41,033 nt of DNA, taken from assembly GCA_019090765.1 (NCBI GenBank), contig JAHRVJ010000184.1, forward strand, positions 1 through 41,033, in the 5' to 3' direction. Shown in pieces: positions 10,994 to 39,664 of this stretch. Under the pieces are notes generated by a model that ran no database searches, had not been told where the DNA came from, and worked only from the letters and a program-made list of their open reading frames with translations. Source of the stretch: Ilumatobacteraceae bacterium. Lineage in GTDB: Bacteria; Actinomycetota; Acidimicrobiia; Acidimicrobiales; Ilumatobacteraceae. Within the stretch, counting starts at the first letter, position 1, and every line of letters starts with the position of its first letter. The position numbers and the translations under genes were made by a program.

Positions 10994-11023
10994 GTCTTTA
11001 CACACTACACTTTTTGTAATGAG
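10994..11023. promoter_or_regulatory. box D of the recurrent operator-like motif: GTCTTTACA-N12-TGTAATGAG
   Basis: Lies in the 81-bp divergent region between the NMO and racemase genes. The right arm contains the racemase ATG (11019). TACACT (11006..11011) in the spacer could serve as a -10 for a leaderless transcript. Confidence 0.5.
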
Positions 11024-12197
11024 CACGCAGACGCCCGAAGGCGGTCCGCTCGCCGGGCTACGAGTAATTGAGGTCGCTGGTATCGGCCCTGGACCGTTCG
11101 CGGCGATGATGCTCGCCGACATGGGCGCCGAAGTCCTCCGCATCGATCGAGCGTCCGCGGTCCCGCCGATGCAACCTGTTGACCCCTCGTGGGATCTCCT
11201 CGGGCGCAGCCGACGTTCGGTGGCCGTCGACCTCAAGAATCCCGAGGGCGGGGAATGTGTCCTGCGCCTGTGCGAAAGTGCGGACGTGCTCATCGAGGGC
11301 TTCCGCCCCGGTGTTGCCGAACGGCTCGGATTCGGCCCGACTGAGGCACTCGCCAGAAACTCGACCCTCGTGTACGGGCGAATGACAGGCTTCGGGCAGA
11401 CGGGCCCCCTCGCATCCGCAGCCGGACACGACATCAACTATGTGGCAATATCTGGGGCGCTCTACCACATGGGTCCTGCGGATGCTCCACCTGTGCCGCC
11501 ACTCAACCTTGTGGGTGACTTCGGCGGCGGCGGCATGCTCTTAGCGGTGGGTATTCTGGCCGCGCTCCACGAACGCTCGACATCTGGGAAGGGCCAAGTT
11601 GTGGACGCTGCGATGGTCGACGGATCGGCACTCCTGACAACTGTTCAGCACAGCATCGCGGCGATGGGAATGTGGAATGTGGAGCGGGGGACCAACATCG
11701 TCGACGGCGGTGCGCCGTTCTATGGCACCTATGAAACCTCTGACGGCAAGTACCTCGCGGTGGGCCCCATCGAAGATCGATTCCGACTCGAGTTTGCAAC
11801 GATTCTCGGACTCGACGTCGCGGAGTTGGGAGATCCCTCAGACCCCACGGAATGGCCTAAGGGTCATGACCGTGTTGCCGAAGTGATCCGCCAACGCACC
11901 GCTGAGGATTGGCTGTCGAGAACCGACGGAACCGATGCGTGCGTAACACCCATACTGTCGATCTTTGATGCACCGGATCACCCGCACAACCAGGCACGTC
12001 AAGTGTTCTGCGAGGTCGACGGGATCGCACAACCCAGCCCGGCGCCACGATTCGATCGCACGCCTTCTCCCAATCCAACCGGTGCACCGAACCCCGGTGA
12101 GCACACCGATGAGGGCCTGGCGGCTTGGGGGTTCTCTGATGCCGAGATCGGGAAACTCCGAGACGCCGGAGTAGTTGCCCAGATCCCGAATGGCTGA
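11019..12197 (+). CDS. mcr: alpha-methylacyl-CoA racemase-like family III CoA-transferase (CaiB/BaiF family)
   Basis: GLRVIEVAGIGPGPFAAMMLADMGAEVLRIDR, EGFRPGVAERLG, GHDINY, PLNLVGDFGGGG and GKGQVVDAAMVDGS match my recollection of mycobacterial Mcr closely. Start moved to the ATG at 11019 (MSTQTPEGG). Confidence 0.75.
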   Translation: MSTQTPEGGPLAGLRVIEVAGIGPGPFAAMMLADMGAEVLRIDRASAVPPMQPVDPSWDLLGRSRRSVAVDLKNPEGGECVLRLCESADVLIEGFRPGVAERLGFGPTEALARNSTLVYGRMTGFGQTGPLASAAGHDINYVAISGALYHMGPADAPPVPPLNLVGDFGGGGMLLAVGILAALHERSTSGKGQVVDAAMVDGSALLTTVQHSIAAMGMWNVERGTNIVDGGAPFYGTYETSDGKYLAVGPIEDRFRLEFATILGLDVAELGDPSDPTEWPKGHDRVAEVIRQRTAEDWLSRTDGTDACVTPILSIFDAPDHPHNQARQVFCEVDGIAQPSPAPRFDRTPSPNPTGAPNPGEHTDEGLAAWGFSDAEIGKLRDAGVVAQIPNG

Positions 12198-13328
12198 TCA
12201 GCCGATACCGCGAACAGCGCGCATCACCATTTCTCGATGCACTTCCGATGTCCCTTCGAGGAGTTCGAAAACCTGGGCGTCACGAAGCAGCCGTTCGACT
12301 GTCGCTCCCTGAGCGATCCCATACACCCCGTGAACCGAAACTGCCATCCGGGCCACCTCGAGCGCCTTGTTGGTGACGAACAGCTTGGCGGTCGCGAGTT
12401 CGGTCCCCGCGGCACCCCACATGTCTTTGCACGCTGCGGCCCAGTAAGTGATCTGACGTGATGCCTCGATCGCGGCAACCATGTCGGCAATCAGCCTGTG
12501 AACGGCCTGGAAGTCGATGATCGGGTGTCCCTGCTGCTCGCGATTGCGCGCATAGGTAACTGCTTCTTCGAGACACGTTTGCATCAGGCCGACACAGCTG
12601 GCGCAGATGCCGATCTTGCCCATCGGCATCACATCTTTGAGAGTTGCGAACTGGCCGCCCGTCTTGCCTCCGAGGACGTTTTCGTTCGGGACCTCGACGT
12701 CGAGTACGAGGTCGGTCAGCTCGGTTCCGCGGACCCCGATGATCGGGATTTGAGTGCCTGGCTGGTAGCCCGGCAGATCGGTCGGGACGAGAAACAGGCT
12801 GATGTCATCATCAGGGTCCTTGGCAAAGACGATGCCGATGTCGGAGCTGCGGGCATTCGAAATCCACATTTTTGTCCCGCGAATCAGCCAACCGTCGTCG
12901 GTGCGAGTCGCCCGGGTCGTCATCATCCGGGTATCAGTTCCCGTCTGTGGTTCGGTGAACGCGAGGAACGACGACAACTTCCCCGACAGTAGGTCCGGTA
13001 CCCACTCCCTGATCTGGGCCTCGGTTCCCGCGTGGAGAATGGCGGCGGCCACCAGAGTGTTGGTTTGGAAGTACATGCTCACCGCCGGGAGTACCCGAGA
13101 CAGCTCTTCGTGTAGAACCGCCCAGGCCAGATGGCTCCCGCCTCCACCGCCGTACTCCTCCGGCAGCGGAAGGCCAATTGCCCCCAACTCCCCAAGCTTC
13201 AGTCGCAGCTCGTGCGGCAACAGGACACCTTCGTCGGCAGGTTTCACGTACTGCGTCAGATGTGTGGTTGCGAAGTCCCGGCAGACTGCCCGGTACTCCT
13301 CGATCTCAGGGGGAAGCGCTGACAGCAT
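12198..13328 (-). CDS. acyl-CoA dehydrogenase (canonical type)
   Basis: 376 aa. ACAD signature FLAFTEPQTGTD and C-terminal LLEGTSEVHRE, with Glu at the canonical catalytic-base position. Confidence 0.88.
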   Translation of the reverse strand: MLSALPPEIEEYRAVCRDFATTHLTQYVKPADEGVLLPHELRLKLGELGAIGLPLPEEYGGGGGSHLAWAVLHEELSRVLPAVSMYFQTNTLVAAAILHAGTEAQIREWVPDLLSGKLSSFLAFTEPQTGTDTRMMTTRATRTDDGWLIRGTKMWISNARSSDIGIVFAKDPDDDISLFLVPTDLPGYQPGTQIPIIGVRGTELTDLVLDVEVPNENVLGGKTGGQFATLKDVMPMGKIGICASCVGLMQTCLEEAVTYARNREQQGHPIIDFQAVHRLIADMVAAIEASRQITYWAAACKDMWGAAGTELATAKLFVTNKALEVARMAVSVHGVYGIAQGATVERLLRDAQVFELLEGTSEVHREMVMRAVRGIG

Positions 13329-13373
13329 GCTGTTTACTCCATGAACAATTGGCGGATGCGGAATGTGCGGGCG

Positions 13374-15610: not shown

Positions 15611-15640
15611 TGGTTTACGAAGTGCACGATGTGTAAAGTA
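15611..15640. promoter_or_regulatory. box B of the recurrent operator-like motif: TGGTTTACG-N12-TGTAAAGTA
   Basis: Lies in the 77-nt gap between the two ACAD genes and ends 8 nt before the ATG at 15648. TAAAGT (15634..15639) fits TANNNT. Confidence 0.5.
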
Positions 15641-15647: not shown

Positions 15648-16958
15648 ATGGCCGACAAGTTGAGAATTCCCACGACCGCGCCCCAACACGGTGGCGGCAC
15701 CGCCGAATACCCTGACCCGCTCCCAATCGAGACGGACGCGTCAGCAGAGGCCGCCGTCGGCGTCGTTCGTGAATGGATCGAGCAGGCAATTCCGGCCGAG
15801 TGGCGGATCGCCGCCGAGAAAGGCGTCGAGCAGCTACGTGAAGTCCGGCCCCGAGAGGCTTATGAACAGTGGTATCCGGCGTTTGCCTCAACGGGTCTCG
15901 CCATACCGCAATGGCCCCGTGCCTACGGCGGGCTAGGCGTCAGCTCGACGACTGCCCGGGCGATCGAGGCTGAACTGGCACCTCACCGGCTCGGTCGATT
16001 GAATATCCTCGGAATCAACCTCGCAGGATCTGCACTGCTCCATTGGGGAACCGAGGAGCAAAAGCGCCGATACCTAATTCCGATCGTGCGCAATGAAGAA
16101 CAGTGGTGCCAATTGTTCAGTGAACCCAACGCCGGTTCCGATCTGCCTTCGCTCGCAGCGTGGGCAACCCGTACGGAAACAGGCTGGCAGATCACCGGCC
16201 AGAAGGTCTGGAACACCTGGGCTGAAAAAGCCGATTTCGGGATTCTCCTGGCCCGCACGAGCCCCGACCTACCAAAGCGGGAAGGGCTCACCTGCGTGAT
16301 CCTCCCGATGCATCAGCCCGGTGTCGAGGTCAGGCCATTACGTCAGTTGACTGGCGACTCGGAGTTCAATGAAGTAATTCTCGACGAGGCGCAAGCTGGC
16401 GACGAGCACCTTCTGGGCAGTGTCGATAACGGCTGGGCGGTTGCCCGCACAGTCCTGTCTGGTGAACGCCAGAACGTCTCGGGCCCGGGGTCGGGCGGGG
16501 GCCTCGACAACTTGGGGGGTCGATCGGTGCATCGACTATTGCAACGTGCGGCCGAGGCCAACCCGGCTGGCCGGCCGGCTGACGACGCGATTTGGCGGCA
16601 ACGCCTGATGAAGCTGTGGAGTGAACACCAGGTGATGCTGTGGACGAACCTAAGGGTCCGCGGTGCCCGCAAGAGCGGCCGCGAACCTGGGGCGAATAGC
16701 TCCATCGGCAAGCTTTTCTCCACCGAACACAACAAACGCCTCCAGGAGGCATGGTTCGACATGACCGCGATGGTCGCCGACGCCGGTGCGACCGAAGAAG
16801 GTCGCCGAGTCCGTTACGGGTTCTTACGTAGCCGAGCCAACACCATTGAAGGTGGAACCTCACAGGTCCAGCGCAATGTGCTCGGCGAGGCCATCTTGGG
16901 TCTGCCGCGTGAGCCCGACCAGTACCACGGCGCATCCTGGCGCGACGTACCCAGATAG
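15648..16958 (+). CDS. acyl-CoA dehydrogenase (candidate catalytic alpha subunit)
   Basis: 436 aa. CQLFSEPNAGSDLPSLAAWA signature and C-terminal IEGGTSQVQRNVLGE. Confidence 0.85.
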   Translation: MADKLRIPTTAPQHGGGTAEYPDPLPIETDASAEAAVGVVREWIEQAIPAEWRIAAEKGVEQLREVRPREAYEQWYPAFASTGLAIPQWPRAYGGLGVSSTTARAIEAELAPHRLGRLNILGINLAGSALLHWGTEEQKRRYLIPIVRNEEQWCQLFSEPNAGSDLPSLAAWATRTETGWQITGQKVWNTWAEKADFGILLARTSPDLPKREGLTCVILPMHQPGVEVRPLRQLTGDSEFNEVILDEAQAGDEHLLGSVDNGWAVARTVLSGERQNVSGPGSGGGLDNLGGRSVHRLLQRAAEANPAGRPADDAIWRQRLMKLWSEHQVMLWTNLRVRGARKSGREPGANSSIGKLFSTEHNKRLQEAWFDMTAMVADAGATEEGRRVRYGFLRSRANTIEGGTSQVQRNVLGEAILGLPREPDQYHGASWRDVPR

Positions 16959-17026: not shown

Positions 17027-18202
17027 TCAGTGTGGTTCAATCACCAGTTCGAGACGGCTCGGACCACGCATCATCGGGTTGTCGACACGCTTGTACGTCG
17101 CTCCCGGCGCGATCCGGATCGAACTCACGCGTTGTAGTAGAGCCTCGATTGTGAGCCTCACCTCCATCCGAGCGAGCGATGCACCGACACAGAAGTGGAT
17201 CCCATGACCAAACGCGATGTGATCGTGGGTGTTGCCCCGACCTAAGCGGAAGTGATCTGGTTCTTCGAAAACGGTTTCGTCTCTGTTCGCCGAGGTAATC
17301 GAGACGGCCAGCGTCGATTCGGCCGGTATGTCCGCGCCAGCGAACTGTGCGGCATGCGGGCATCTCCGAAAGAGGAACTGGACCGGAGAGTCGAGGCGTA
17401 ACGACTCCTCGATCGCGTCGTCGATGCGTGACGGGTCGTTACGCAGATCGCCGAAGAGCCCCTCGACGGTGGCCATCGAATGTAACAGGTTGCCAATCAG
17501 GTGGGTTGTCGTCTCACTGCCGCCAACGATCACGTTCGTCACGTGGGTCACGATCTCGGTGTCAGAAAATGTCTTGCCGGAATCACCGACGTGGCGGACC
17601 ATTCGCGTAATCAAATCATCGGGCGGATCGGTGGCCCCGCGCCGAGCGATAGCCAGGTCGCGCACATAAGCGGCAAAGTCCTCGGCCGGAGTGACGGAGA
17701 AGTCGCCCGCCGGGTTGAACGCTTCGACAGCGGCGTCGGCCCAGAGACGGAATTGTGGTGCGTCCTCCTCAGGTACTCCGAGCATGTGGGCAATCACGTT
17801 GGTCGGCAGTGGCTTGCCCACGGTCTCGATGGCATCGCCGCCGCCGTGCTCCACCAGGCGGTCCACCAGCATCTCCGCCTGCTCACGAATGTACGGCTCG
17901 GCCTTTCGGAGAGACGAGCGGCCGAGCAGCGAATTGAGCAGCTTTCGGACTTCGGTATGAGCCGGCGGATCGAGTTCTCCGGCGGCAAGTTCTTCGGGGT
18001 CTCGGTCCTCGACCATTGGGGTGAATCCGGCCTGCGGAAATCGCTTGTGGTCGGTCATTGCCTCGGCTGCCTCCGGATGCCGAGTGACCAACCAGACCGT
18101 AGGCATCACTTCGACGGCGGAGGCGTCTTGTCGGAGCTGCGCGAATACGGAGTAGGGATCCTCAAGTTGAGCGGGATCGAACAGGTTGAATTCAACTGAC
18201 AC
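17027..18202 (-). CDS. cytochrome P450
   Basis: Heme-thiolate loop FGHGIHFCVGASLAR, ExxR (EESLRL) and I-helix GGSETTTH. I prefer the GTG at 18202 (GGAG 8 nt upstream, N-terminus VSVEFNLFDPAQLEDPY) over the TTG at 18265. Confidence 0.88.
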   Translation of the reverse strand: MSVEFNLFDPAQLEDPYSVFAQLRQDASAVEVMPTVWLVTRHPEAAEAMTDHKRFPQAGFTPMVEDRDPEELAAGELDPPAHTEVRKLLNSLLGRSSLRKAEPYIREQAEMLVDRLVEHGGGDAIETVGKPLPTNVIAHMLGVPEEDAPQFRLWADAAVEAFNPAGDFSVTPAEDFAAYVRDLAIARRGATDPPDDLITRMVRHVGDSGKTFSDTEIVTHVTNVIVGGSETTTHLIGNLLHSMATVEGLFGDLRNDPSRIDDAIEESLRLDSPVQFLFRRCPHAAQFAGADIPAESTLAVSITSANRDETVFEEPDHFRLGRGNTHDHIAFGHGIHFCVGASLARMEVRLTIEALLQRVSSIRIAPGATYKRVDNPMMRGPSRLELVIEPH

Positions 18203-18303: not shown

Positions 18304-18333
18304 GATGATACACTGCGCCCACTTTGTAAAGTG
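18304..18333. promoter_or_regulatory. box C (weakest copy) of the recurrent motif: GATGATACA-N12-TGTAAAGTG
   Basis: Lies in the 194-bp divergent region between the P450 and M24 genes. The right arm is a full match; the left arm keeps only ATACA. Confidence 0.35.
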
Positions 18334-18396: not shown

Positions 18397-19605
18397 ATGA
18401 CCGATATTGATACCGCAATCGATACAAGGGCCATGCAGGCCGAGCGTGGTTCTCGGCTCCGAACGACAATGGACTCGCTCGACCTGGATGCGGTGCTGCT
18501 CAGATACGGACCGAACGTCGACTACGCCTCCGGCCTGCCCACTCCGATCGCCGATTCCAGCCATATCGCGTCCGACCCGTCAGCAGTGCTGGTGATCGCC
18601 TCAGATCCCGTTCCCCATGTCTTCAGCGACTCAGGCGCGATCCCCATCGATATCGACTCGGACCATTCACATCCTCCGCTGGATATCGCTGGCGACGATG
18701 CCGCCGACCGACTCTGGGACGCGATTCGAAGCTGTCTAGGTGACGCTCGGATCTCACTGGGTGTCGACGAACTCACCGCTGCGTTGGCGTGCAACCTCGG
18801 CGGACTCCAGCGTCATACGGATCTGACGGGCGCCGCCACGGTCATGGCAATAGCTCGGTCGTGCAAGAACAGCCACGAAGTGGCGTGCATCGAGAAAGCC
18901 GAGACGATCAACGAACAGGCCGCCGCCGACATCCGAGACCTCCTGATTCCAGGCGCACGACACAATCACGTTGCCGCCGAGTTTGTCTCTAGGGCCCGCG
19001 CCCTTGGAGCAGACGGCAACGTAATCGACCCGATCTTTCATCCCGTGAGGCCGAGGTTGAACGAAGGGCCGTTCACACCTAATGGTGAACCGGCCTTTCC
19101 GCTCCCTGGGTCGGATTACCTCCTGGCCGACGGTGATGTGTGCTGGGTGGACACCGGAATTCTGGTGCACGGATACGCGTCCGACTTCGGCCGCACCTGG
19201 ATCGTGTCAGATGATCCCCAACCGACGGCTGACCAGCACGCCCAGTTCGAACAGTGGCGGGGAGTCGTCGAACGGGTGCTCGAAAAGGTCGGTCCCGGCA
19301 CGACGGGCGCCGAGTTGATGGAAGCAGCTGGGCACGTGCACGGTCGCCGCCCTGTTCTGAACCACTTCTACCTGATCCACGGGATCGGGCTGGAAAGTGC
19401 CGAGATGCCACTCATCGGCACCGATCTTGGGCCGGAGATGGACTCGATGATGATCCTAGAACCCGGCATGGTGTTGGTGCTGGAGCCAGTCATCTGGTCC
19501 GATGGCAGCGGGGGGTACCGCTCCGAAGACATCGTCTTGGTGACCGAAGATGGATATCGGAAACTGAGTGGCGACGACTACTGGCCCTTCCGGAGCGCCT
19601 CATGA
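18397..19605 (+). CDS. M24-family (creatinase/prolidase pita-bread fold) metallohydrolase, metal ligands retained
   Basis: 402 aa from the ATG at 18397. Candidate ligand contexts: CWVDTGILVHGYASDFGRTW (two Asp), IHGIGLE (His), LVLEPV (Glu), YRSEDIV (Glu). Creatinase-like N-domain (LDLDAVLL). Confidence 0.8.
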   Translation: MTDIDTAIDTRAMQAERGSRLRTTMDSLDLDAVLLRYGPNVDYASGLPTPIADSSHIASDPSAVLVIASDPVPHVFSDSGAIPIDIDSDHSHPPLDIAGDDAADRLWDAIRSCLGDARISLGVDELTAALACNLGGLQRHTDLTGAATVMAIARSCKNSHEVACIEKAETINEQAAADIRDLLIPGARHNHVAAEFVSRARALGADGNVIDPIFHPVRPRLNEGPFTPNGEPAFPLPGSDYLLADGDVCWVDTGILVHGYASDFGRTWIVSDDPQPTADQHAQFEQWRGVVERVLEKVGPGTTGAELMEAAGHVHGRRPVLNHFYLIHGIGLESAEMPLIGTDLGPEMDSMMILEPGMVLVLEPVIWSDGSGGYRSEDIVLVTEDGYRKLSGDDYWPFRSAS

Positions 19606-20735
19606 TCAGGCCGGGACCCGAGCAGCTCTCGTCTGCAGCAGTGGACGATGGCACCCCCATCGATTTCAACGAACTCCGTTCGGCTCGGATGCGGAAGGTG
19701 CAATCGGTAATGAGCGATCTGCGAATCGGTCTGCTGCTGCTCGGTGGGGAAGCGAACATCCGCTACGCGGTCGGCGGCCGTCGCCTCTGGACGGCTGGGG
19801 AAAGGCCCTGGGCTCCGACCTGCATCATCTCGGCCTCCGGTGAGGTCCGTTTGATGAGCCAATATGACACTGGGGTACCCCCCGAAGTCTCGCAGGAGAA
19901 TCTCTTCTGTTTGACCTGGAACCCCGCCAACTTCGGTGCGCAGATCGCTGCGGCCGCGAGTGGCGGCATCGAACGTATCGGTCTCGACGGCGCGAGCATG
20001 ACAATGATGGATGTGCTCGATGTAGCAGTACCCGGCGCGACCCTCGTTGATGCCTCGGGCGCCCTCCTGGATGCTCGCTCGTCCAAGCTTCCAGCCGAAG
20101 TCACGCTGCTCGAACTCGCCACTCAACTTGCTGGCGAAGCCTTGCTCGCTGCCAGCCGAACGATCACACCTGGCATAACCATTTCAGAGCTGAGGGGACG
20201 ATTGGAAGCTGCGATCCGTTCGAGATCTGTTTGCGTCCCGGCCGATTCCGACCGACTTGCGCTGCCAGTCCGCAGCGTGTCAGATTTGGTCTCATCGGGT
20301 GACGCAATCGTTATGCGATCCGCCCTGCTGCACGCGGGATACGAGGGAGCCGTCACTCGCACGGCAGTCTGTGGGGCTCCGACTCCCGACCACCGGGCCG
20401 CTGAGCGGGCCTGGCAGCAAGCATGGGAGGCCCTACTGCCGGTCTTTTCGCCCGACCTCGACGGCGCCGGGCTCCACGATGCTCTCGCTGCGATCCCTGC
20501 CGTCGATCTTCGGAAGTCGACGGCCCGCGCGATCGGACTCGGTGTAGAACGAAAGATCGGCGGATCGTTGCATCCCCACGATCCGTTACGGGAAGGTTCC
20601 GTCGTCATGCTCGAATTGACAACTTGCCACGCCGACGCCGAGGTCACCGCTGGCTGCCCAGTCATCGTCGGGCCGAAGGGCGGCGTGACCATGACAACTC
20701 TCCATCCCGCGCCGATCGTTGTCTGCGGCTCGTGA
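19602..20735 (+). CDS. M24-fold paralog with degenerate metal site (candidate non-catalytic partner)
   Basis: 377 aa from the ATG at 19602, in an ATGA overlap with the upstream M24 gene. Equivalent segments read IVMRSALLHAGYEGAVTRTA (both Asp positions replaced) and ARAIGLGVE (His replaced), while VMLELT keeps a Glu. Confidence 0.7.
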   Translation: MIRPGPEQLSSAAVDDGTPIDFNELRSARMRKVQSVMSDLRIGLLLLGGEANIRYAVGGRRLWTAGERPWAPTCIISASGEVRLMSQYDTGVPPEVSQENLFCLTWNPANFGAQIAAAASGGIERIGLDGASMTMMDVLDVAVPGATLVDASGALLDARSSKLPAEVTLLELATQLAGEALLAASRTITPGITISELRGRLEAAIRSRSVCVPADSDRLALPVRSVSDLVSSGDAIVMRSALLHAGYEGAVTRTAVCGAPTPDHRAAERAWQQAWEALLPVFSPDLDGAGLHDALAAIPAVDLRKSTARAIGLGVERKIGGSLHPHDPLREGSVVMLELTTCHADAEVTAGCPVIVGPKGGVTMTTLHPAPIVVCGS

Positions 20736-20825
20736 ATTCGCCTGCCGAAGACCACAACTTGAGGGATCCGATGATCTCACCTCGTCACCAATCCACCATC
20801 AGCCAACCGACATTGCGAGCTTGAC

Positions 20826-22223: not shown

Positions 22224-22265
22224 CGGGCGTCAGATGGTTCACGTGGCCACACGACCACAACAGCA

Positions 22266-22280
22266 ATCACATCACATCAC
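22266..22280 (+). repeat. (ATCAC)x3 microsatellite inside a CA-rich, G-poor leader
   Basis: Read directly as aATCACATCACATCACaac. It is embedded in the CA-rich tract 22245..22296 upstream of the ligase GTG at 22313. Confidence 0.8.
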
Positions 22281-22312
22281 AACAAAACACACCACGAAGT
22301 GAAAGGACCGAA

Positions 22313-26948: not shown

Positions 26949-26958
26949 GGAGGCAGAT

Positions 26959-28068: not shown

Positions 28069-28084
28069 CGAAGGAGTACACAGC

Positions 28085-30728: not shown

Positions 30729-33421
30729 CAGATCGTACGTCCCGAAGCGCTCTCACCGAAGTAGAGATCCGTAATGATCTGCGAATCGAAGTGTTCGACG
30801 GGGCCTGCGGCAAGGACACGCCCGAGGTCCATGACAACAATGTGATCGGCAATCTCCAGGAGATTGGCAGCCTGTTCAGCGACCAACACAATCGTCGTCC
30901 CGCCGTCGCGCAACTCTGCCATCAGTTCGAACAACGATTCGGTGATCCGCGGCGCCAGGCCGAGCGTCGGTTCGTCTGAAATGAGTAGCTGTGGAGGCCG
31001 GATAAGGAGGGGAGCCATCGTGAGAATCTGCTGCTCGCCACCTGACAGCAGGTTCGCCATCAGCTTCCTCCGTGGAGCCAATGCCGGAAAACGCTGCATC
31101 ACCAGTTCGCGATCCCCGGGATCAGAGAGCCACACTGCGAGGTTCTCCTCGACGGTGAGTCCAGGGAAGATGCCACGGCTCTCGGGGGCCAACACCAGCC
31201 CGATCGAGGCACGCTTGTCAGCGGGCAGCTGCGAGATGTCGACACCGTCGAACTCTACGCTGCCCGCCGTTGACGGCAGCAATCCCGCCATGACTGAGCA
31301 AAGAGTCGACTTGCCAGCGCCATTGGGCCCGACGATGGCCAGTATCCCCCCGCGAGGTACCGAAAAGTCGATGCCGTGTAGGACCTCGACACCTCCGTAA
31401 CCAGCGACGATTCCCTCCAGTCGGCAGATCCCCTGCGATCCATCGTCGATCGATACCTCAGGGCTCGGGGTGGAGGGCGGCTGTTCGTGTTCCAAATAAT
31501 GTTCACGATCAGCCGGCGTCCGGCGACGCCGCTTGAACGTCGACACTGACAGCAGCCCATAGGGATACCGCACTACGGCAACTGCACCGAGACCGAAGAG
31601 GACTTGTGGCCACAAGGTCGAGTCGGTGAACCACCCGACGACACTTGGCAAGAACACAAATGCAAGACCTGCGGCAAAGGCACCACCGACTCGCTGAATG
31701 CCGAAAACGGCGACCACGGCGACCCAGACAAGACCCAATGGGGTGCTGAAGTCTGTGCTCGAGATTCGCATGTTCGTCGACGCCATCAGGGCGCCACCGA
31801 ACCCGGCCACCATCGCCGACACACTGAACATGGTCAGCTTGGCCCTGACCGGCGACACACCCACTGAGGCGGCGGCAACCTCTGAGGAACGCACCGCCCC
31901 CATCGCTCGGCCTGTCGGTGATTTGATGATATTCGTAACGAACAGCGCGAGCAGGCCGAAAATCGCAAGCAACACGATTGCGTATGCGCGATCGCTATCT
32001 AGCGAGATCGGGCCGAGGCTGGGCCGGGGCAACTCTCTTCCGCTCGAGCCCCCCGTTACCGCCTCGATACGAAACACCACTCGGTCAGCCATGAAACCCA
32101 TCGCCAAGGTCGCGAGCGCGAGTGACAGGCCGCCGAGACGCAAGGACGGAATGGCAACCAGCAGGCCCGCAAGCATCGCCACGACGGCACCAACTGCGGC
32201 TGCGAGGAAGAAGGGCCAGCCGTGGCTGGTGAGGATTGCTGCCGTTACAGCGCCCGACATCGCAAAGGCCGCTTGGGCCAGAGAGACCATCGACCCGATG
32301 CCCGTCACGATGACAAACGACAGGAATATCACCGCCATGGCCATTGACTTGGCTGCCAGACTGGCTTGGAATTCGTCGACGAGGAATACCCAACCAATGA
32401 AGGCCACTGCGCACAGTGCCCACGGGAGCCGGCGGCGCCAGGCCACGACATCACCCGAAACATCGGGTGCAGCGGTTTCTTCGATTGTGGTGCCGGCGCG
32501 CCGAGAGCGATCTCGGCCGAGCAGTAGTAGGCCGCCGAGCAGCAGCACGAATGGCACGGCGGAGCGCAACCCCGGCAGCAGTTGTGGCGATACTTCGACG
32601 TACCCTGAGACCAGGCTCTGTACGACTCCGAGGGCAACACCCGCGGCCATCGCGATGGGGATCGACTGGAGCCGGCCGATGACCGCTGCGGCCGTGGCAA
32701 CAAACATCAAGAAGGTGAAGACCGTCGGCTCGAGGTTGAACAAGGGGGCGATCAAGACGCCCGCCAAACCGGCGATAGTTGTGGAGGTGACAGTCGAGAT
32801 ACGTGAAGTTCTCACCGTGTCGATCCCACGAGCCGAAGCGAGGTCAGTCCGGTCGACCGTCGCCCGGATCGACAGGCCGAGCCGAGTATGGCGGATGATT
32901 AACCAGAGGCCTGCAGCCACGATGACCGCGGCGACGAACACGGCAAGTTGATTTGAGTCGAGTACGACGCCGTCGGCGATCTGCCAGCGCGCTGGCGGCG
33001 CTGGCCCCAAGCCCGGTGGCAGGAAGACCTGCTGATCGCTGGCGAGGTCCACGCCGGCAGTGACTGTCAGCCACGACCCGATCAGTAATATCAGCGGTGG
33101 CAGGGCAACGGCAAGACCGATGGTTGCAACAATCCGCACGACCTCGTTGCGGCGAGTTAGAGCCCTGAAAATGATGGTGTCGAGCAGCAGCCCCAAGAGT
33201 GGAGCGAAAACGCCGATCGTCAGCAGAGCCGAGGGGACGATCGCGAGACCAAGACCGCTGTTGAGTTGAAAGAAAACGTAGGCACTGCAGAAGGCGATCG
33301 CGCCGTACGCGAAGTTGAAGACCTTGGTCGTCGTATACGTGAGCACCAACCCGCTGGCAAACAGACCATATATTCCTCCAAAGATGCCGCCGCTGAGCGC
33401 CAGGCTTAGAAACTTGCTCAC
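30728..33421 (-). CDS. fused branched-chain-type ABC transporter: LivH-like permease, LivM-like permease and LivF-like ATPase in one polypeptide
   Basis: 897-aa uninterrupted ORF. The N-terminal roughly 300 aa are a hydrophobic LivH-like domain. The middle is a LivM-like domain (LVDEFQASLAAKSMAMAVIFLSFVIVTGIGSMVSLAQAAF). The C-terminal ATPase has GPNGAGKST, LSGGEQQIL and LLISDEPTLGL. Confidence 0.85.
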   Translation of the reverse strand: MSKFLSLALSGGIFGGIYGLFASGLVLTYTTTKVFNFAYGAIAFCSAYVFFQLNSGLGLAIVPSALLTIGVFAPLLGLLLDTIIFRALTRRNEVVRIVATIGLAVALPPLILLIGSWLTVTAGVDLASDQQVFLPPGLGPAPPARWQIADGVVLDSNQLAVFVAAVIVAAGLWLIIRHTRLGLSIRATVDRTDLASARGIDTVRTSRISTVTSTTIAGLAGVLIAPLFNLEPTVFTFLMFVATAAAVIGRLQSIPIAMAAGVALGVVQSLVSGYVEVSPQLLPGLRSAVPFVLLLGGLLLLGRDRSRRAGTTIEETAAPDVSGDVVAWRRRLPWALCAVAFIGWVFLVDEFQASLAAKSMAMAVIFLSFVIVTGIGSMVSLAQAAFAMSGAVTAAILTSHGWPFFLAAAVGAVVAMLAGLLVAIPSLRLGGLSLALATLAMGFMADRVVFRIEAVTGGSSGRELPRPSLGPISLDSDRAYAIVLLAIFGLLALFVTNIIKSPTGRAMGAVRSSEVAAASVGVSPVRAKLTMFSVSAMVAGFGGALMASTNMRISSTDFSTPLGLVWVAVVAVFGIQRVGGAFAAGLAFVFLPSVVGWFTDSTLWPQVLFGLGAVAVVRYPYGLLSVSTFKRRRRTPADREHYLEHEQPPSTPSPEVSIDDGSQGICRLEGIVAGYGGVEVLHGIDFSVPRGGILAIVGPNGAGKSTLCSVMAGLLPSTAGSVEFDGVDISQLPADKRASIGLVLAPESRGIFPGLTVEENLAVWLSDPGDRELVMQRFPALAPRRKLMANLLSGGEQQILTMAPLLIRPPQLLISDEPTLGLAPRITESLFELMAELRDGGTTIVLVAEQAANLLEIADHIVVMDLGRVLAAGPVEHFDSQIITDLYFGESASGRTI

Positions 33422-34215
33422 GTCGTAGCGCCCGTACCCAGGTATGCATCGTGAACGGCGGTACTGGCGATCACGTCGCTGGCAGGTCCGTCGGCAAGTA
33501 CTTCGCCGAGGTTGAGCGCGGTCAGTGAATCACTCAAAGACATGATGAAGGCGATGTCGTGCTCCACAAGTAGGACGCCACACTTTTCTCCAGCGGCGAC
33601 CATCCGGACTATCTGCGCCAGCCTTTCTGTCTCGACCTCGTCAAGCCCTGATGTCGGCTCGTCAAGCAGGAGGAGTCTCGGTTCATCGACGATCGCGCGA
33701 CCCAATTCAACCATCCGGGCTCGGCCGATTGGCAACGCCGCGGCCAGGATCGAGGCGACATCTTCGAGTTCGCACATCGCCAACACTTCGTCTACCCGGC
33801 GCTGTCGCTCCACCTCCAGTTGTTGCCTGGACGGGACCCGCTTGAGTACGTCGGCAAGAACGCCACCCCCGCCTCCCCGCCATTCGATGGCAGTCAGCAG
33901 ATTGTCCCGAACACTCAGATGGCCAAATACCTGGGCGCGTTGAAAAGTTCTTCGGACACCGAGTCGCGCCCGAGCCGTTGGCGAGCTTCGCGTGATCACG
34001 TCGCTACCGAGCGAAATCTTGCCGGTATCGGCCCGAACGACACCGGCGATCACGTCAAACAACGTGGTCTTACCGGCACCGTTGGGCCCGATGACTCCGT
34101 GGATTTCCCCAGGCGAGACCTGCACCCTCACGTCGCGCAGGGCTTGAACGCCGCCGAAGCTGACGCTCAGGTTTTCGACCGACAGTCCATTGCTGTCGCT
34201 GACTGGGGGGTTCAC
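33418..34215 (-). CDS. ABC transporter ATP-binding protein (LivG-like)
   Basis: 265 aa. Walker A GPNGAGKTT and Walker B LLLLDEPTSGLD. GTGA overlaps at both ends (with the SBP stop and the fused permease start). Confidence 0.88.
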   Translation of the reverse strand: MNPPVSDSNGLSVENLSVSFGGVQALRDVRVQVSPGEIHGVIGPNGAGKTTLFDVIAGVVRADTGKISLGSDVITRSSPTARARLGVRRTFQRAQVFGHLSVRDNLLTAIEWRGGGGGVLADVLKRVPSRQQLEVERQRRVDEVLAMCELEDVASILAAALPIGRARMVELGRAIVDEPRLLLLDEPTSGLDEVETERLAQIVRMVAAGEKCGVLLVEHDIAFIMSLSDSLTALNLGEVLADGPASDVIASTAVHDAYLGTGATT

Positions 34216-35666
34216 CGGATGCAGGTCAACTCAACCGCCTCAACGAAGACGCTGTCAACGACTCCGGCCAGCGCACCACATTCCCTGGGAAACGAATGGG
34301 CTTCCGGGAAGGTGAGAGCCGCAAGAGCCCCTCCGCCATCGAAGACAGTCGAGTTCGCTGCTTCGTAGAATGCTTCGTAGGTCAGGTCGGTTCCAACGGC
34401 CTCCAGGATCTGGCTGAACAGCATCGCCGAGAAGTATCCCGATGCAAGTGGCTGGGTCAGTACGGTTCCCTCGGGAGCAAACTCAGCGACGTCGGCCTTG
34501 AGCTGGGCAATTCCCGGGTTGTCTTCGGACTGGAAAGTGGCGAACCCGACATAGGCAGTTGCGCCCTCGACCGCTTGCGCCGCCGACTCGACCGCCAGGA
34601 CGCGCGGATCGTAGATCGCCGGTGTCGTGACTTTGCCCTCGAATCCGGACGCTTGTAAACGGCCAGCCAACTGGATAGCAGTGGAAGCACCGGAGACGAT
34701 GAACACGACGTCGGGGTTGGCCTCGATAATTCTCTGGGCAAATGGTGTGTAGTCGGTACCGGGATCGATCGGGATTCCGGTGTCAACCAGGACTTCTTCC
34801 AATCCGAGTTCATCGAGGGACCTGAGGTATCGGTCGACGCCAGCACGGGCCGCTTCGGTGTCCTCAGCGGAGAATGCGACCGTCTTCGCATCTGGGTACA
34901 GCTCTGCAATCAGGCCCGGCCATGCGTATGCCGGGTGATCATCGACCTTTGGATTACCGCATCCGTTGAAGCTGAATCCCTCCGGGGTGTCGCAGAACGC
35001 CTCGTGGAATCCCCAACCGAAGTACGGGATTCCGACATCCTGAAGAACCGATGACCCGGCAAAGAAACTGGATACGACTGGCACGACAGCGAACACCTCT
35101 TCCTCTTCGACGAGGCTTCGGGCCTGGGTAATGTTCTGTTCGTTGTTCTCTCCGTCGTCCTTGACTCCGATGAAGTCGATCTGTCGGCCAGCTATACCAC
35201 CGTTGGCGTTGACACTGTCAAAGTAGACCTGGGCGCCGACATCGACTCCTGTGAACGTGGCCAGCCGTGGGCTCGTTAGCGTTGACAAGCCACCGACTTT
35301 CACCGACGTGTCGGTTACTCCTTGAAGCTCCGGTGGATTGGCCTCGAGGTCGAACGCCAATTCGACGATCGGTTCTGGCGGCTCCACGCTGTCAACGGGG
35401 GGATTCACTGTCTCTGCGGGCGGCGCGGCGCTGTCTGTAGGCGGTGCTTCTGTACCGCTGGCTGCCGTTCCATCGGGCGATGCTGTGGCGTCGCTGGTTA
35501 CTGGGTCAGTCTCGACCGTACTGTCATCGCTGTCGCTGCTACAGGCCGCTACGACAATCATCGCGCCTGCGGCCAACGCGGCGATACGCATCTTGCCACT
35601 TCTGGAATGCGCGCGTTGTCGTCCACGTGCCTTCGAGTCGTTGGAATCCACTCGCTGCTTGGTCAT
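34212..35666 (-). CDS. Liv-type (type I periplasmic-binding fold) ABC substrate-binding lipoprotein with a long low-complexity linker
   Basis: 484 aa. GGAGG SD before the ATG at 35666. Signal peptide with lipobox (AGAMIVVAAC, Cys42), followed by about 60 aa rich in Asp/Ser/Thr/Pro (coordinates about 35367..35540). Confidence 0.82.
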   Translation of the reverse strand: MTKQRVDSNDSKARGRQRAHSRSGKMRIAALAAGAMIVVAACSSDSDDSTVETDPVTSDATASPDGTAASGTEAPPTDSAAPPAETVNPPVDSVEPPEPIVELAFDLEANPPELQGVTDTSVKVGGLSTLTSPRLATFTGVDVGAQVYFDSVNANGGIAGRQIDFIGVKDDGENNEQNITQARSLVEEEEVFAVVPVVSSFFAGSSVLQDVGIPYFGWGFHEAFCDTPEGFSFNGCGNPKVDDHPAYAWPGLIAELYPDAKTVAFSAEDTEAARAGVDRYLRSLDELGLEEVLVDTGIPIDPGTDYTPFAQRIIEANPDVVFIVSGASTAIQLAGRLQASGFEGKVTTPAIYDPRVLAVESAAQAVEGATAYVGFATFQSEDNPGIAQLKADVAEFAPEGTVLTQPLASGYFSAMLFSQILEAVGTDLTYEAFYEAANSTVFDGGGALAALTFPEAHSFPRECGALAGVVDSVFVEAVELTCIR

Positions 35667-35776: not shown

Positions 35777-35806
35777 TAGTTTACAGTAGCACGCCGATGT
35801 AAACTA
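35777..35806. promoter_or_regulatory. box A, the perfect copy of the recurrent motif: TAGTTTACA-N12-TGTAAACTA
   Basis: The 9-bp arms are exact reverse complements. It lies in the 234-bp divergent region between the transporter operon and the amidohydrolase operon. TACAAT (35809..35814) follows immediately. Confidence 0.6.
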
Positions 35807-35900: not shown

Positions 35901-37112
35901 ATGACCACACCGTATTTGCTATTCGATTCGGACAACCATTACTACGAACCACGAGATGCATTCACGCGTCACATGGAAGAGCGCTATCAGGATCGCGCGA
36001 TCCGCGTGGTAACCGACGATCGTGATCGTGACCGAATTCTCATTGGTGACGAACCCTTCACATTCTTGACTCCGCTCTTCCAGGACGCGCCCGCACCGGG
36101 TGCTCTTGCAGAGCTGATGAGGGGCAAGCGCGCCGATACCGGTGAGCGGCCCCACTATGAGATGCAGCCCGAGTTCGTCAACCGGGATGCCCGACTCGCA
36201 GCGATGGATAGACAGGGCGTCGAGTCGGCGGTCATGCTGCCCACGCTCGGCGTCACAGTCGAACACCAGATGCGCCACGACCACGAGGGAACCTTCGCCA
36301 ACCTCAGAGCGTTCAATCGCTGGCTCGAAGAGGACTGGGGCTTCGCCTATGAGGATCGAATCTTCGGCGTCCCGCTCCTCTCTCTCGTCGACATCGACTT
36401 GGCCGTTGAAGAGCTCAAGCGCGTCATCGAGGCCGGAGCACGGATTGTTCACCTGCGGCCGACGCCAGTTGATGGGCGCAACATCGCCGATCCACATTTT
36501 GATCCGTTCTGGGCGCTCTGCAACGAAGCCCGGATCCCTGTTGCGTTTCACATCTGCGAAGCCGGTTACAACGAGCTGATGTCAACGCAGCTCGGTGAGC
36601 TGCCTAATCCTCGGTCTCACAAGCAGTCAGCTCTGCAGTGGGCGATGTTCTTCGGTGATCGACCGATTATGGACACGCTCGCCGCTCTCATCTATGCCGA
36701 CCTATTCGGCCGCTTCCCGAATCTGAAGGTGATGACCATCGAGAACGGATCTTCTTGGCTGCCCTATCTTCTGAAGCGGCTCGACAAGATGAAAGGGATG
36801 GGCCGATTCGGGCAATGGGTTGGCGGTCAGGCCCCAAAGGGACGCCCGAGTGAGATCTTCCGCGAGCACGTTGTCGTGTCGCCGTATTTCGAAGACGATC
36901 ACACTGAACTGATCGACCTGATCGGTGCTGACTCCATTGTGTTCGGCTCCGATTGGCCCCATCCGGAGGGGCTGGCCGAGCCGAGGAGTTACTTGGAAAG
37001 CCTTCCCGACTCGCTCTCGGCATCCGACACGCGCAAGATAATGCGCGACAATGGCCGCCGACTTGTCGGCCTCCCAATCGAGACCCCACCGATGTCGAGC
37101 TCCCCTCAGTGA
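35901..37112 (+). CDS. Amidohydro_2-family metal-dependent hydrolase (paralog 2)
   Basis: 403 aa. FDSDNHYYEPRDAFTRH and VFGSDWPHPEG motifs, colinear with the CDS at 3764..4954. Confidence 0.8.
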   Translation: MTTPYLLFDSDNHYYEPRDAFTRHMEERYQDRAIRVVTDDRDRDRILIGDEPFTFLTPLFQDAPAPGALAELMRGKRADTGERPHYEMQPEFVNRDARLAAMDRQGVESAVMLPTLGVTVEHQMRHDHEGTFANLRAFNRWLEEDWGFAYEDRIFGVPLLSLVDIDLAVEELKRVIEAGARIVHLRPTPVDGRNIADPHFDPFWALCNEARIPVAFHICEAGYNELMSTQLGELPNPRSHKQSALQWAMFFGDRPIMDTLAALIYADLFGRFPNLKVMTIENGSSWLPYLLKRLDKMKGMGRFGQWVGGQAPKGRPSEIFREHVVVSPYFEDDHTELIDLIGADSIVFGSDWPHPEGLAEPRSYLESLPDSLSASDTRKIMRDNGRRLVGLPIETPPMSSSPQ

Positions 37113-37915
37113 GCAACGATCTACCGGCCGAATACGATCTTCCTGAATCGATCGTCGTAACCAGCGACGGCCACGTCCGGATCGTGACCCTGAACCGTCC
37201 GGATCAACTCAACGCGATCGTCCCAGCTCTTCACGACGGATTGACGCACCTATGGCGACAACTTGCCGAAGATAACGATGCGCGGGCGGTCGTTCTCACC
37301 GGCGCCGGTCGAGCATTCAGCGCCGGAGGTGACCTCGATACCCTTCAGATCCAGATCGACGATGCCGACGCCCGTCGAGCGAGTATGCGCCAGGCCGGCG
37401 AACTTGTGCACGAGATCATCTCCTGCCCGCTTCCCATCGTGGCTGCCGTCAACGGCCCAGCAGTCGGGCTCGGTGCGACCATCGCCACGTGCTGTGACAT
37501 GGTCTATCTCGCCGAGTCTGCATTCCTTTCCGATCCGCACATTGCAATCGGGCTCGTGGCTGGCGATGGGGCAGTCGCTAGCTGGCCGCTGGCTGCCGGC
37601 CTACTCAGAGCCAAGGAGTACATCCTGACCGGAGACCGGATATCTGCCGAAGAGGCTTACCGTGTCGGGCTCGCCAATCGAGTCTTTCCGGCAGAAGAAT
37701 TGCTATCCGCGGCGCTTGCGACTGCGAAACGGCTGGCCGACCTACCTCCGTTTGCCGTGCAGCAAACCAAGCTGGCGCTCAACCAACACCTGGCAGCGGC
37801 CGTCGGGATCACGCTTCCCTTCGCCCTCGCCGCCCAGAGTGAGAGCTTCACGACACCCGACGTTGCCGCGGCGCTTGCAGCACTCAAGGCCAAGACGGAC
37901 AGACGAGACACGTAG
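37109..37915 (+). CDS. enoyl-CoA hydratase/isomerase (crotonase) family protein
   Basis: 268 aa from the GTG at 37109 (GTGA overlap with the amidohydrolase stop). LNRPDQLNAI and FSAGGDLD motifs. The track start at 36953 lies inside the upstream gene. Confidence 0.82.
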   Translation: MSNDLPAEYDLPESIVVTSDGHVRIVTLNRPDQLNAIVPALHDGLTHLWRQLAEDNDARAVVLTGAGRAFSAGGDLDTLQIQIDDADARRASMRQAGELVHEIISCPLPIVAAVNGPAVGLGATIATCCDMVYLAESAFLSDPHIAIGLVAGDGAVASWPLAAGLLRAKEYILTGDRISAEEAYRVGLANRVFPAEELLSAALATAKRLADLPPFAVQQTKLALNQHLAAAVGITLPFALAAQSESFTTPDVAAALAALKAKTDRRDT

Positions 37916-37952
37916 CCGAGCCACGCTCGATTACCGCGATCCCCACAAGACC

Positions 37953-37982
37953 TTCACCCACAACACCCTCACCCACAACGAC
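37953..37982 (+). repeat. two tandem 15-bp units (TTCACCCACAACACC / CTCACCCACAACGAC) in a CA-rich leader
   Basis: Read directly. 12 of 15 positions are identical, and CACCCACAAC is exact in both copies (37955..37964 and 37970..37979). Confidence 0.8.
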
Positions 37983-38008
37983 ATCACCGAAGCAACTGGA
38001 GCGAATAC

Positions 38009-39625
38009 GTGAGCAACAGATTGACCCTGGCAGGACTGGTAGACGAGCGCTGGAGCGCACTCGGAGAGAAGCCTTATGCGCTGTACGACGACGTCCCGGT
38101 CACTTGGGGGGACCTGCGCCGACGGAGCATCCGCGTCGCCAATGTTCTCAACGGACGGGGGCTCGAACCCGGCGATGTCGTCGGTATCTACCTCAACAAC
38201 TGTCCAGAGATCATGGACATTCTGGTCGCCGCGTCGAGGCTCGGAGTGCTCGCGGTCCCGATCAACACGGCCCAGGTGGGGGACTTCCTGTCCCACCAAG
38301 TGAACGAGGCAGGGTTCGAATTGGTGATTACCGAACCCGCTCTGTTTCCGCGTCTCGAACAGATCCAAGACGATGTGCCCGGTCTGCAAGACGTTCTGGT
38401 GGCTCGCGCGGAGGGGCTGGTTGATCTCCCAGGACTTCGGAGCCGATACAACGTCGCGGATGTATCGGTCCTGTATGAGGGCACGGAGTCTCATTTGGAG
38501 ACCGACCATCAACCAGATCCCGGAGACCCGCTCGCCATCTTGTTCACGTCTGGCACGACTGGCAAGTCCAAGGGCGTGGTGGTCTCGAACCACTATTTCG
38601 TCAACGGTGCACGGGTCATCGCTGAGAACAACGAGATGCTCAGAACCGACGTGTGGTATGGCGCTGTACCCCTGTTCCACTTCAGTGGTCTCCTCGGGGT
38701 GCTCGGTTGCGCGATGTGGGTGGGATGTACTGCGATCCTCGACAGTTGGTTCAGCCTCACGGGAACCTGGGATCAGGTTCGTAAGTACAACTGCACCGGC
38801 ATGATTCTGGTTGGCCCGATGCTGAACATGGTTTGGGATCTTCCGGAGGACCCCTCGGATGCAGACCTGCCGATCAGGGTTCTCGGCGCTGCCCCGATAC
38901 CTCCTGGGTGGATCGAGCCGATTCAGGAAAGGTACAACTGCAGGCTTGTCACGATGTACGGCATGACCGAGTGTTTCCCAATTTCTGTGCACAACCTCAA
39001 CGACGTGATGAAACCGGGCACTGCCGGAAAGCCCAACTCGTCATTCGACGTTCAGATCGTCGATGACCACGATCAAGCTGTCGCACCGGGCGAGGTGGGC
39101 GAGATCGTCGCCCGACCGAAAGAGCCGAATGTGATGTTCGAAGGGTATTTCAACCGTCCTGAGGAGACCCTCGAACGAATGCGCACCCTCTGGTTCCACA
39201 CTGGCGACTACGGCCGCATCGATGAGGATGGTTACGTCACTTTTGTTGACCGCAAGAAGGACGCCTTGCGCCGCCGCGGAGAGAACATGTCCTCCATGGA
39301 GGTGGAAGCTGCCCTGATCGGTCATCCGGCCATCGCCGACGCGGCGGTGGTGGCCGTCCCCAGCCCACTCGGGGAGGACGACGTAAAGGCATGCCTGGTC
39401 CGCACGGACGACAGCGTCACACACGAAGAGCTCATCCGGTATTGCGAGGAGCACATTCCGTTCTTCGCGATCCCTCGATACATCGAGTTTGTAGATCACT
39501 TGCCACGCAATGCAGTTGGCCGGGTACTCAAGTTCACACTTCGAGAAGAAGGTATCAACGACGCCACCTGGGACCGAGACGAAGCCGGCATCAAGATCAA
39601 GAAGTTGAAGCCGACTCGGCACTGA
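38009..39625 (+). CDS. AMP-dependent acyl-CoA synthetase/ligase
   Basis: 538 aa, GTG start with GGAG SD. P-loop LFTSGTTGKSKGVVV, YGMTE, and C-terminal FAIPRYIEFVDHLPRNAVGRVLK. Confidence 0.87.
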   Translation: MSNRLTLAGLVDERWSALGEKPYALYDDVPVTWGDLRRRSIRVANVLNGRGLEPGDVVGIYLNNCPEIMDILVAASRLGVLAVPINTAQVGDFLSHQVNEAGFELVITEPALFPRLEQIQDDVPGLQDVLVARAEGLVDLPGLRSRYNVADVSVLYEGTESHLETDHQPDPGDPLAILFTSGTTGKSKGVVVSNHYFVNGARVIAENNEMLRTDVWYGAVPLFHFSGLLGVLGCAMWVGCTAILDSWFSLTGTWDQVRKYNCTGMILVGPMLNMVWDLPEDPSDADLPIRVLGAAPIPPGWIEPIQERYNCRLVTMYGMTECFPISVHNLNDVMKPGTAGKPNSSFDVQIVDDHDQAVAPGEVGEIVARPKEPNVMFEGYFNRPEETLERMRTLWFHTGDYGRIDEDGYVTFVDRKKDALRRRGENMSSMEVEAALIGHPAIADAAVVAVPSPLGEDDVKACLVRTDDSVTHEELIRYCEEHIPFFAIPRYIEFVDHLPRNAVGRVLKFTLREEGINDATWDRDEAGIKIKKLKPTRH

Positions 39626-39632
39626 TTTTACA

Positions 39633-39664
39633 TACTTTACGAGTTCTGGATATTGTAACGTTAC
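39633..39664. promoter_or_regulatory. box E of the recurrent motif (TACTTTACG-N12-TGTAACGTT), overlapping the 10-bp palindrome GTAACGTTAC
   Basis: Lies in the 86-nt gap upstream of the Rieske oxygenase gene. An extra half-site-like TTTACA sits at 39627..39632. TATTGT (39651..39656) fits TANNNT. Confidence 0.45.

Follow-up and report, generated by a model that had tools for sequence, protein, structure and literature searches.

Six copies of a TTTACA-N12-TGTAAA inverted repeat as predicted operators of a TetR-family regulator in a catabolic gene cluster of an Ilumatobacteraceae bacterium

The stretch of DNA analysed here (the window) comprises 41,033 nucleotides of an Ilumatobacteraceae bacterium (assembly GCA_019090765.1, contig JAHRVJ010000184.1, positions 1 to 41,033) and contains a catabolic gene cluster in which six copies of a 30-bp inverted repeat, referred to as boxes A to F, have been found. 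A gene map built from open reading frames (ORFs), Pfam families and start-codon context leaves 2368 bp of non-coding DNA, which is 5.8% of the window. The sequences and positions of the six boxes reported in an initial annotation, including the perfect 9-bp arms of box A, have been confirmed in all six cases. The boxes adjoin nine transcription units, to which the cluster-wide regulon proposed in that annotation would be limited. No box is present in the leftmost 11 kb, where a luciferase, the WYL regulator, hydrolases, the double TetR and an enoyl-CoA hydratase are encoded, or at three acyl-CoA dehydrogenase (ACAD) genes (12198-15570).

Box D (10994..11023, GTCTTTACA-CACTACACTTTT-TGTAATGAG) lies in the divergent gap between a minus-strand unit encoding an NMO-type flavoprotein (ATG 10937) and an AMP-ligase (8323..10937) and a plus-strand gene for a family III CoA-transferase/racemase-type protein (11019..12197). 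Box B (15611..15640, TGGTTTACG-AAGTGCACGATG-TGTAAAGTA) is placed 7 nt upstream of the ATG (15648) of a plus-strand ACAD gene (15648..16958). Box C (18304..18333, GATGATACA-CTGCGCCCACTT-TGTAAAGTG) occupies another divergent gap, with the gene of a cytochrome P450 on the minus strand (17027..18202, GTG 18202) and, on the plus strand, an operon (18397..24836, ATG 18397) for two M24/creatinase-like proteins, two AMP-ligases and a hotdog/MaoC pair. Box F (24883..24912, GACTTTACA-ATGACCCACTTG-TGTCAACTA) is separated by 46 nt from the preceding stop codon of the MaoC gene and by 11 or 41 nt from the downstream start of an enoyl-CoA hydratase (ECH) gene (GTG 24924 or 24954), and it heads a plus-strand unit encoding ECH, two ACADs and a short-chain dehydrogenase/reductase (SDR) (24924..28840).

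Box A (35777..35806, TAGTTTACA-GTAGCACGCCGA-TGTAAACTA) separates two divergent operons, at 110 nt from ATG 35666 and 94 nt from ATG 35901. The minus-strand operon (28868..35666) encodes a periplasmic binding protein (PBP), an ABC ATPase, a fused ABC permease-ATPase, a TetR-family regulator and a double-hotdog FAS1_DH protein, and the uptake system of the cluster is a Liv-type ABC importer. The plus-strand operon (35901..39625) encodes an amidohydrolase_2 protein, an ECH and an AMP-ligase. Box E (39633..39662, TACTTTACG-AGTTCTGGATAT-TGTAACGTT) follows the stop codon of this AMP-ligase gene by 7 nt and precedes by 49 nt the ATG (39712) of a KshA-like, KshA_C-type Rieske oxygenase gene (39712..40749, plus strand), with which the cluster ends and beyond which the genes are unrelated. 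An extra half-site, TTTTACATAC, precedes box E (39626-39635), and its right arm overlaps a second small palindrome, GTAACGTTAC (39655-39664); given both features, box E may be a composite site.

A search for TTTACA-N12-TGTAAA allowing up to two mismatches has revealed exactly six matches in the window, starting at 10997, 15614, 18307, 24886, 35780 and 39636. All of them are in non-coding DNA and none in coding DNA, which agrees with the absence of coding copies noted earlier by eye, and spacers of 0-24 other than 12 produced 0-2 matches each. The 12-nt spacer is shared by the six boxes, and TAC in the left arm and TGT in the right arm are invariant. The consensus first proposed, TTTAC(A/G)-N12-TGTAA(A/C), describes boxes A, B and E literally, but boxes C, D and F deviate in one arm (left arm GATACA in C, right arms TGTAAT in D and TGTCAA in F). 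Likewise, the six core matches are intergenic as stated, but the right arm of box D, TGTAATG, contains the ATG (11019) of the CoA-transferase gene, and thus this box is not purely intergenic.

The frequency expected by chance has been estimated with 2000 dinucleotide-preserving shuffles restricted to the intergenic segments (2.4 kb), because intergenic DNA is AT-richer than the genes. In this control, the shuffled DNA contained 0.022 matches on average, with a maximum of 1, compared to the 6 observed. When all inverted 6-mers with spacers of 0-20 were ranked in the intergenic DNA, TTTACA/N12 and its register shifts came first with 6 sites, and the best unrelated inverted hexamer had 3. A weight matrix with symmetrised arms, trained on the same six sites that it scores, gave 20.6-30.5 bits for these sites (30.5 for box A, the top site, 26.0 for box F and 24.2 for box E) and 6.3 bits for the next best position of the window, with a 14-bit gap between the sixth site and that position. 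Each of the twelve spacer columns carries 0.1-0.4 bits and the flanks are unrelated, the arms being the only common part. The 10 kb past either end of the window, filled with unrelated genes, have been scanned as well and contain no further box. The box is a strongly over-represented, symmetric motif of fixed geometry that occurs only in the promoter-proximal DNA of the cluster.

Conservation has been examined in the one relative found, which is represented by contigs L001 and L034 (sample ERZ25039601), both syntenic with the window. Its proteins are 77% (TetR), 86% (ACAD) and 85% (ECH) identical to those of the window. The four boxes that could be checked (A, B, C and D) are all present at orthologous places. 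Box A of the relative is AAGTTTACA-TCAGTCTGCTAC-TGTAAACTA (L001:2597-2626), with 12 of 12 core hexamer bases and 9 of 12 spacer bases kept. Box B is identical at 30 of 30 positions in L034 and in L035, within a perfect block of 46 bp that runs through the ATG. In box C of L034 the arms are kept, save for a change of TGTAAA to TGTAAC, and 6 of the 12 spacer bases are changed, and box D is retained as GTTACA...TGTAAT. Over the four aligned regions, divergence was 2/48 (4%) in the core hexamers, 3/24 in the outer three arm bases, 11/48 (23%) in the spacers and 194/474 (41%) in the other intergenic columns (Fisher p = 3e-8 for core versus other intergenic DNA and 0.014 for core versus spacer), which demonstrates that the arms are under purifying selection. 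Enrichment over intergenic shuffles, confinement to the cluster and conservation of the arms agree with the earlier proposal that the box would serve as a shared operator of the transcription units of the cluster.

The position of boxes B and D with respect to the start codons allows some promoter elements to be proposed. The sequence TAAAGT in the right arm of box B fits the actinobacterial -10 form TANNNT and is located 8 nt before ATG 15648. As no Shine-Dalgarno sequence precedes this start codon, a leaderless promoter is suggested at box B; the N-terminal peptide opened by the ATG is also found in the relative in conserved form. At box D, a -10 candidate of the form TANNNT is provided by the spacer sequence TACACT, 7 nt upstream of ATG 11019, a start codon chosen by the gene callers both in the window organism (392 aa) and in the relative (L034:5314), and the CoA-transferase gene is apparently leaderless too. 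A scan of the box A region with the sigma-70 consensus gave no match.

The window encodes three regulators, namely a WYL/HTH protein and two proteins of the TetR family. Two regulators had been put forward as binders in the initial annotation, a single-domain TetR protein (30084..30728, minus strand, 214 aa, Pfam TetR_N) and a double TetR protein (5863-7119); the evidence favours the former and disfavours the latter. It seems reasonably likely, judging from position, conservation and analogy, that the six boxes are the operators of one repressor, which would be most probably the single-domain TetR. The TetR gene is translationally coupled to the preceding ABC gene, with stop and start codons sharing one base, and its transcription probably proceeds from the promoter region around box A together with that of the ABC gene. 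As the operon is headed by this box, the sole perfect palindrome, autoregulation is suggested. In addition, a symmetric box whose departures from the consensus arise independently in either arm and are never compensated fits a homodimeric DNA reader and not an RNA stem. This TetR is rare and lineage-specific, as only two relatives above 40% identity were found among 5.8 billion proteins, one 77% and one 43% identical, and the 77% orthologue is encoded in the same operon arrangement near the conserved box A (L001). The AlphaFold model of the protein (pLDDT 87) has its best PDB folds in acyl-CoA-sensing FadR proteins of Bacillus and Thermus. TetR paralogues with 38% identity are encoded divergently from MPAB_Lcp_cat genes in three other contigs (L011:9945-9985, L012:9965-10000 and L014:1645-1680), and the gap between both genes holds a long composite palindrome, CTGAGACATGAAACATATCAAGTCTCATGTCTCAG, that represents a different operator grammar in a sister clade.

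In the proposed mechanism, each 30-bp box would be occupied by two TetR dimers, with one dimer per arm, in the manner of TtgR and QacR. From centre to centre, 18 bp separate the hexamers, a distance too long for both helix-turn-helix (HTH) motifs of one TetR dimer, and the occupancy by two dimers is proposed because of this spacing, the operator grammar shared with TtgR and PmeR and the TetR proteins known to act in this way that are described below. The bound repressor would block RNA polymerase, as the box would overlap or abut core promoter elements: the right arm of box B would carry the -10 element of a leaderless gene, and box D would cover both the -10 element and the start codon. Repression by promoter occlusion is the probable mode of action suggested by these arrangements. 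The repressor would control its own operon through box A, and an acyl-CoA or another pathway intermediate, formed after uptake by the co-regulated ABC importer, would release it, and up to nine transcription units with about 24 genes would then be switched on together. An acyl-CoA or a pathway CoA-ester is a conjectural inducer, in keeping with the genes present in the cluster.

The box is not a new operator type, as its half-site and spacing are equal to those of the operators of TtgR, CAGTATTTACAAACAACCATGAATGTAAGTATATTC, and PmeR, GTTTACAAACAACCGCGAATGTAAGTAT, both of which correspond to TTTACA-N12-TGTAAG (PMC4538802). The window boxes follow TTTACR-N12-TGTAAA, and the parallel with TtgR (Pseudomonas putida ttgR/ttgABC) and PmeR (P. 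syringae pmeR/mexAB-oprM) would extend to a TetR-family repressor and to an operator that overlaps divergent promoters, including that of the regulator itself. However, TtgR and PmeR each act on one operator and one resistance-nodulation-division (RND) efflux operon in response to drugs and flavonoids, whereas the six operators described here precede ACAD, ECH, AMP-ligase, P450, Rieske oxygenase and Liv-type ABC importer genes, and the window boxes do not share the spacer AACAACCnnGAA present in the operators of TtgR and PmeR. The alignment of the window TetR with TtgR covers only the generic HTH region (E values of 1.6e-4 to 3.9e-4), many other TetR proteins score as well or better, and on this comparison the window TetR is orthologous neither to TtgR nor to PmeR. 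Krell et al. reportedly described in 2007 a 30-mer as the minimal site of TtgR, with cooperative binding of two dimers.

Long operators of 28-30 bp bound by two dimers, which are placed on opposite faces of the DNA, are also known for the TetR-family proteins QacR, CgmR, CprB, SlmA, Ms6564 and the FadR of B. halodurans (5GPC) (PMC6018408). As in the window boxes, the sites of QacR (IR1), CgmR, CprB, SlmA and FadR (5GPC) are pseudo-palindromes of about 28-30 bp with outer arms too far apart for one dimer, and the structures that best match the TetR AlphaFold model are those of FadR from B. halodurans and B. subtilis. QacR IR1 differs in being palindromic throughout, whereas the window box is conserved in the outer arms of 6-9 bp only and its inner 12 bp vary. 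The BkaR operator, GTTA-N-T-N4-A-N-TAAC, is unlike the window box, and a literature search with both hexamers and the term 'TetR' returned nothing relevant.

KstR and KstR2 are TetR repressors with a palindromic operator before many operons, autoregulation and a CoA-thioester or pathway intermediate as inducer. The regulon logic proposed here is the same, with one TetR and many operators in one catabolic cluster. KstR-type operators are short single-dimer sites. The KstR pattern TnnAACnnGTTnnA has one match in the window, inside the P450 coding region and at chance level (16 of 100 shuffles), and the KstR2 pattern AnCAAGnnCTTGnT has none, in agreement with the difference pointed out in the initial annotation. 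With the NCBIfam KstR equivalog, whose cut-off is 280 bits, the double TetR scored 31.9 bits and the single TetR had no match. A KstR or KstR2 regulon has been rejected, as no such operators were found in promoter regions and none of the ten cluster proteins compared with NCBIfam reached the KstR equivalog cut-off.

Several points weigh against the assignment of the boxes to the single-domain TetR. The link between this protein and the box is based on position, one related genome and analogy, and the half-site identity with the TtgR and PmeR operators may be coincidental. The scanned DNA (the window plus 10-kb flanks) amounts to 61 kb of the genome, and further sites or regulators may be present elsewhere. 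Boxes E and F are outside the contigs of the relative, and the evolutionary footprint is that of boxes A to D. About 100-140 nt separate the TetR gene from the ABC gene in the relative, which makes co-transcription less certain there. The Foldseek matches to FadR are weak (E values of about 1e-5 to 1e-6, TM 0.55-0.65) and correspond to the generic TetR fold. Finally, the spacer lacks conserved inner half-sites such as those of QacR IR1, and the two-dimer model is a geometric argument only.

An explanation in which the boxes are operators but their binder is encoded outside the window, or is the WYL/HTH protein (1676-2641), the TetR being merely one of the regulated genes, is considered unlikely, although it is the strongest of the alternatives. 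It draws on the fact that position, one co-occurrence and the TtgR/PmeR analogy are all that tie the TetR to the box, on the limited portion of the genome seen (61 kb) and on the reading of wide-spaced inverted repeats by other dimeric or tetrameric families. However, every site of the scanned DNA belongs to the cluster in which the TetR gene is located, the best of them and sole perfect palindrome heads the operon of this very gene, and half-site and spacing match known TetR-family operators. Moreover, the WYL promoter has a perfect inverted repeat of its own and no TTTACA box. This repeat, TTGCGGACA-TCATC-TGTCCGCAA (2661-2683), is located in the divergent gap between the WYL/HTH gene (1676-2641, minus strand) and an alpha/beta-hydrolase gene (2740-3675), and it is probably the own operator of the WYL regulator, which would point to a small regulon in the left part of the window, distinct from that of the boxes.

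The double TetR (5863-7119) is a considerably less probable binder. Its gene is in the window, 4 kb from box D, the protein has two TetR_N domains, and among PDB entries it best matches Mce3R, which regulates lipid genes. With Mce3R of Mycobacterium tuberculosis it shares the double-TetR architecture and the proximity to lipid-catabolic genes, but the alignment extends over the first HTH region alone (residues 16-68). Mce3R reads asymmetric, non-palindromic 25-bp sites through two non-identical HTH motifs (PMC11667970), whereas the box is symmetric, and no box is present in the 262-bp promoter region of the double TetR gene itself (7120-7381). Furthermore, the relative keeps boxes D, B and C, yet an ACAD gene, and not a double TetR gene, sits upstream of the orthologue of ECH (85% identical). 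The gap at 7120-7381, between the double TetR and ECH genes, holds the inverted repeat AGCACTC-GCG-GAGTGCT (7276-7292), and in L034 this gap and the double TetR gene are replaced by two ACAD genes.

That the box is just a promoter, with TTTACA as -35 and TG-TAAAsT as extended -10 for RNA polymerase or an alternative sigma factor, appears very improbable. TTTACA equals five of the six bases of TTGACA, the sequences TAAAGT, TAAACT and TAACGT fit TANNNT, and the box B hexamer is found 8 nt before a leaderless ATG; but the distance between the hexamers would be 14-15 bp, short of the usual 16-18 bp, and no sigma-70 promoter was detected on scanning the DNA around box A. A promoter does not need two-fold symmetry or the perfect 9-bp arms of box A, the distance to the start codons varies from overlapping to 110 nt, and the -10 candidate of box D is in the spacer and not in an arm. 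Spacing and symmetry have led to the rejection of the promoter-only interpretation.

A dispersed palindromic repeat (REP/MITE-like) or an RNA hairpin (terminator or processing site) without any DNA-binding regulator can be practically dismissed: although inverted repeats in intergenic DNA, two of them (E and F) just past stop codons, might suggest either, the arms alone are common to copies that are not similar through centre and flanks, as a REP/MITE repeat would be, and the hairpin is rejected by the folding z-scores (arm fold predicted only for A and D, with z from -1.7 to +0.9 and no site significantly more stable than shuffled sequence) and by an Rfam search of the whole window that found nothing, in addition to the lack of a T run after any box, of a terminator-like site at A and of compensatory arm changes.

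Support for the box as a predicted binding site is good, and for its proposed role as operator of the resident single-domain TetR it is reasonable. The switch is of an ordinary kind, found here in a new lineage, as repeated palindromic operators in TetR catabolic regulons are already well known, and no concept is changed by it. More tentatively, a lineage-restricted TetR without a characterised orthologue might have arrived at the operator grammar of TtgR and PmeR and used it six times in an uncultured actinobacterium, for Liv-type ABC uptake (not Mce), oxygenation by P450 and KshA-like enzymes and beta-oxidation of an alicyclic or sterol-like substrate. If true, clusters of this type would have a third, independent 'KstR-like' master switch, and a two-dimer TetR operator would be seen to serve a multi-operon regulon. 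The boxes mark about 24 genes that are probably switched together, including the Liv-type ABC importer and the repressor itself. The grammar shared with TtgR and PmeR is a small but useful data point on TetR proteins of low similarity that would read the same DNA, and the box is a possible biosensor part.

With respect to the substrate, the steroid-like character attributed to the gene set in the initial annotation is partly reflected in the gene content, which includes the KshA_C-type Rieske oxygenase and paired ACAD and MaoC genes. The hallmark genes expected for steroid-ring degradation are KstD, HsaA-D, IpdAB and a thiolase. None of them appears in the Pfam annotation of the window, and no NCBIfam equivalog cut-off was reached by any of ten cluster proteins. 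The cluster is described here as one for degradation of the fatty-acid/alicyclic type, the steroid-like label being unproven. The window is metagenomic and its genes recur on several SCHR21-1 scaffolds; the nearest named homologues belong to Acidimicrobiia, Mycolicibacterium, a Mycobacteriales genome and Frankia (34-58% identity), and a scan of 185,579 GTDB species genomes with the P450 gave nothing above 32% identity.

Homologues of the PBP (45-65% identity) and of an ACAD (60%) were found in high-GC organisms and in other gene contexts. No box was detected in 230 kb around the PBP and ACAD homologues of organisms without the single-domain TetR, whose genomes are GC-richer. A metagenome scan with AGTTTACA-N12-TGTAAACT produced at least 120 loci, mostly in AT-rich contigs and there probably due to chance; among the matches listed, no TetR ORF and no further regulon member was present. 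Four GC-rich contigs among these matches share the sequence CGAAGTTTACAC-GG-TGTAAACTT-TGTAAACTTCG (L107:5274-5309, L056:1421-1456, L049:1615-1650 and L139:3632-3667), which adjoins housekeeping genes in L107 (purD/xseA) and in L139 (E2/E3 of a 2-oxoacid dehydrogenase) and resembles a dispersed repeat, or the target of another factor, from an unrelated organism.

Some additional features were observed in the relative and in the window. In the relative, an insertion absent from the window is located between the ACAD and P450 genes (L034:11250-14166) and contains a DDE transposase, an FtsX fragment and a FAD_binding_8 protein; the reading frame of the ACAD N-terminus is shifted by +1 within a G5C4 run (L034:9940-10015), probably through an assembly error. 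Two divergent ACAD genes of the window are 55 bp apart (14511-14565), with both ribosome-binding sites inside this stretch, no box and no room for two promoters, and the stretch is conserved in L034 (GTATCAT core). Leaders rich in C/A and poor in G/T (for instance CACCCACAAC, present twice) are found directly 5' of two AMP-ligase genes (22256-22295 and 37955-37988), the second of which corresponds in the relative to an orthologous tandem repeat (L001:395-470); they could be sites for translation control or for RNA-binding proteins. In the left part of the window, the inverted repeat CTGAC-TAGAGT-GTCAG (3713-3728) is situated 36 nt upstream of an amidohydrolase gene (start 3764).

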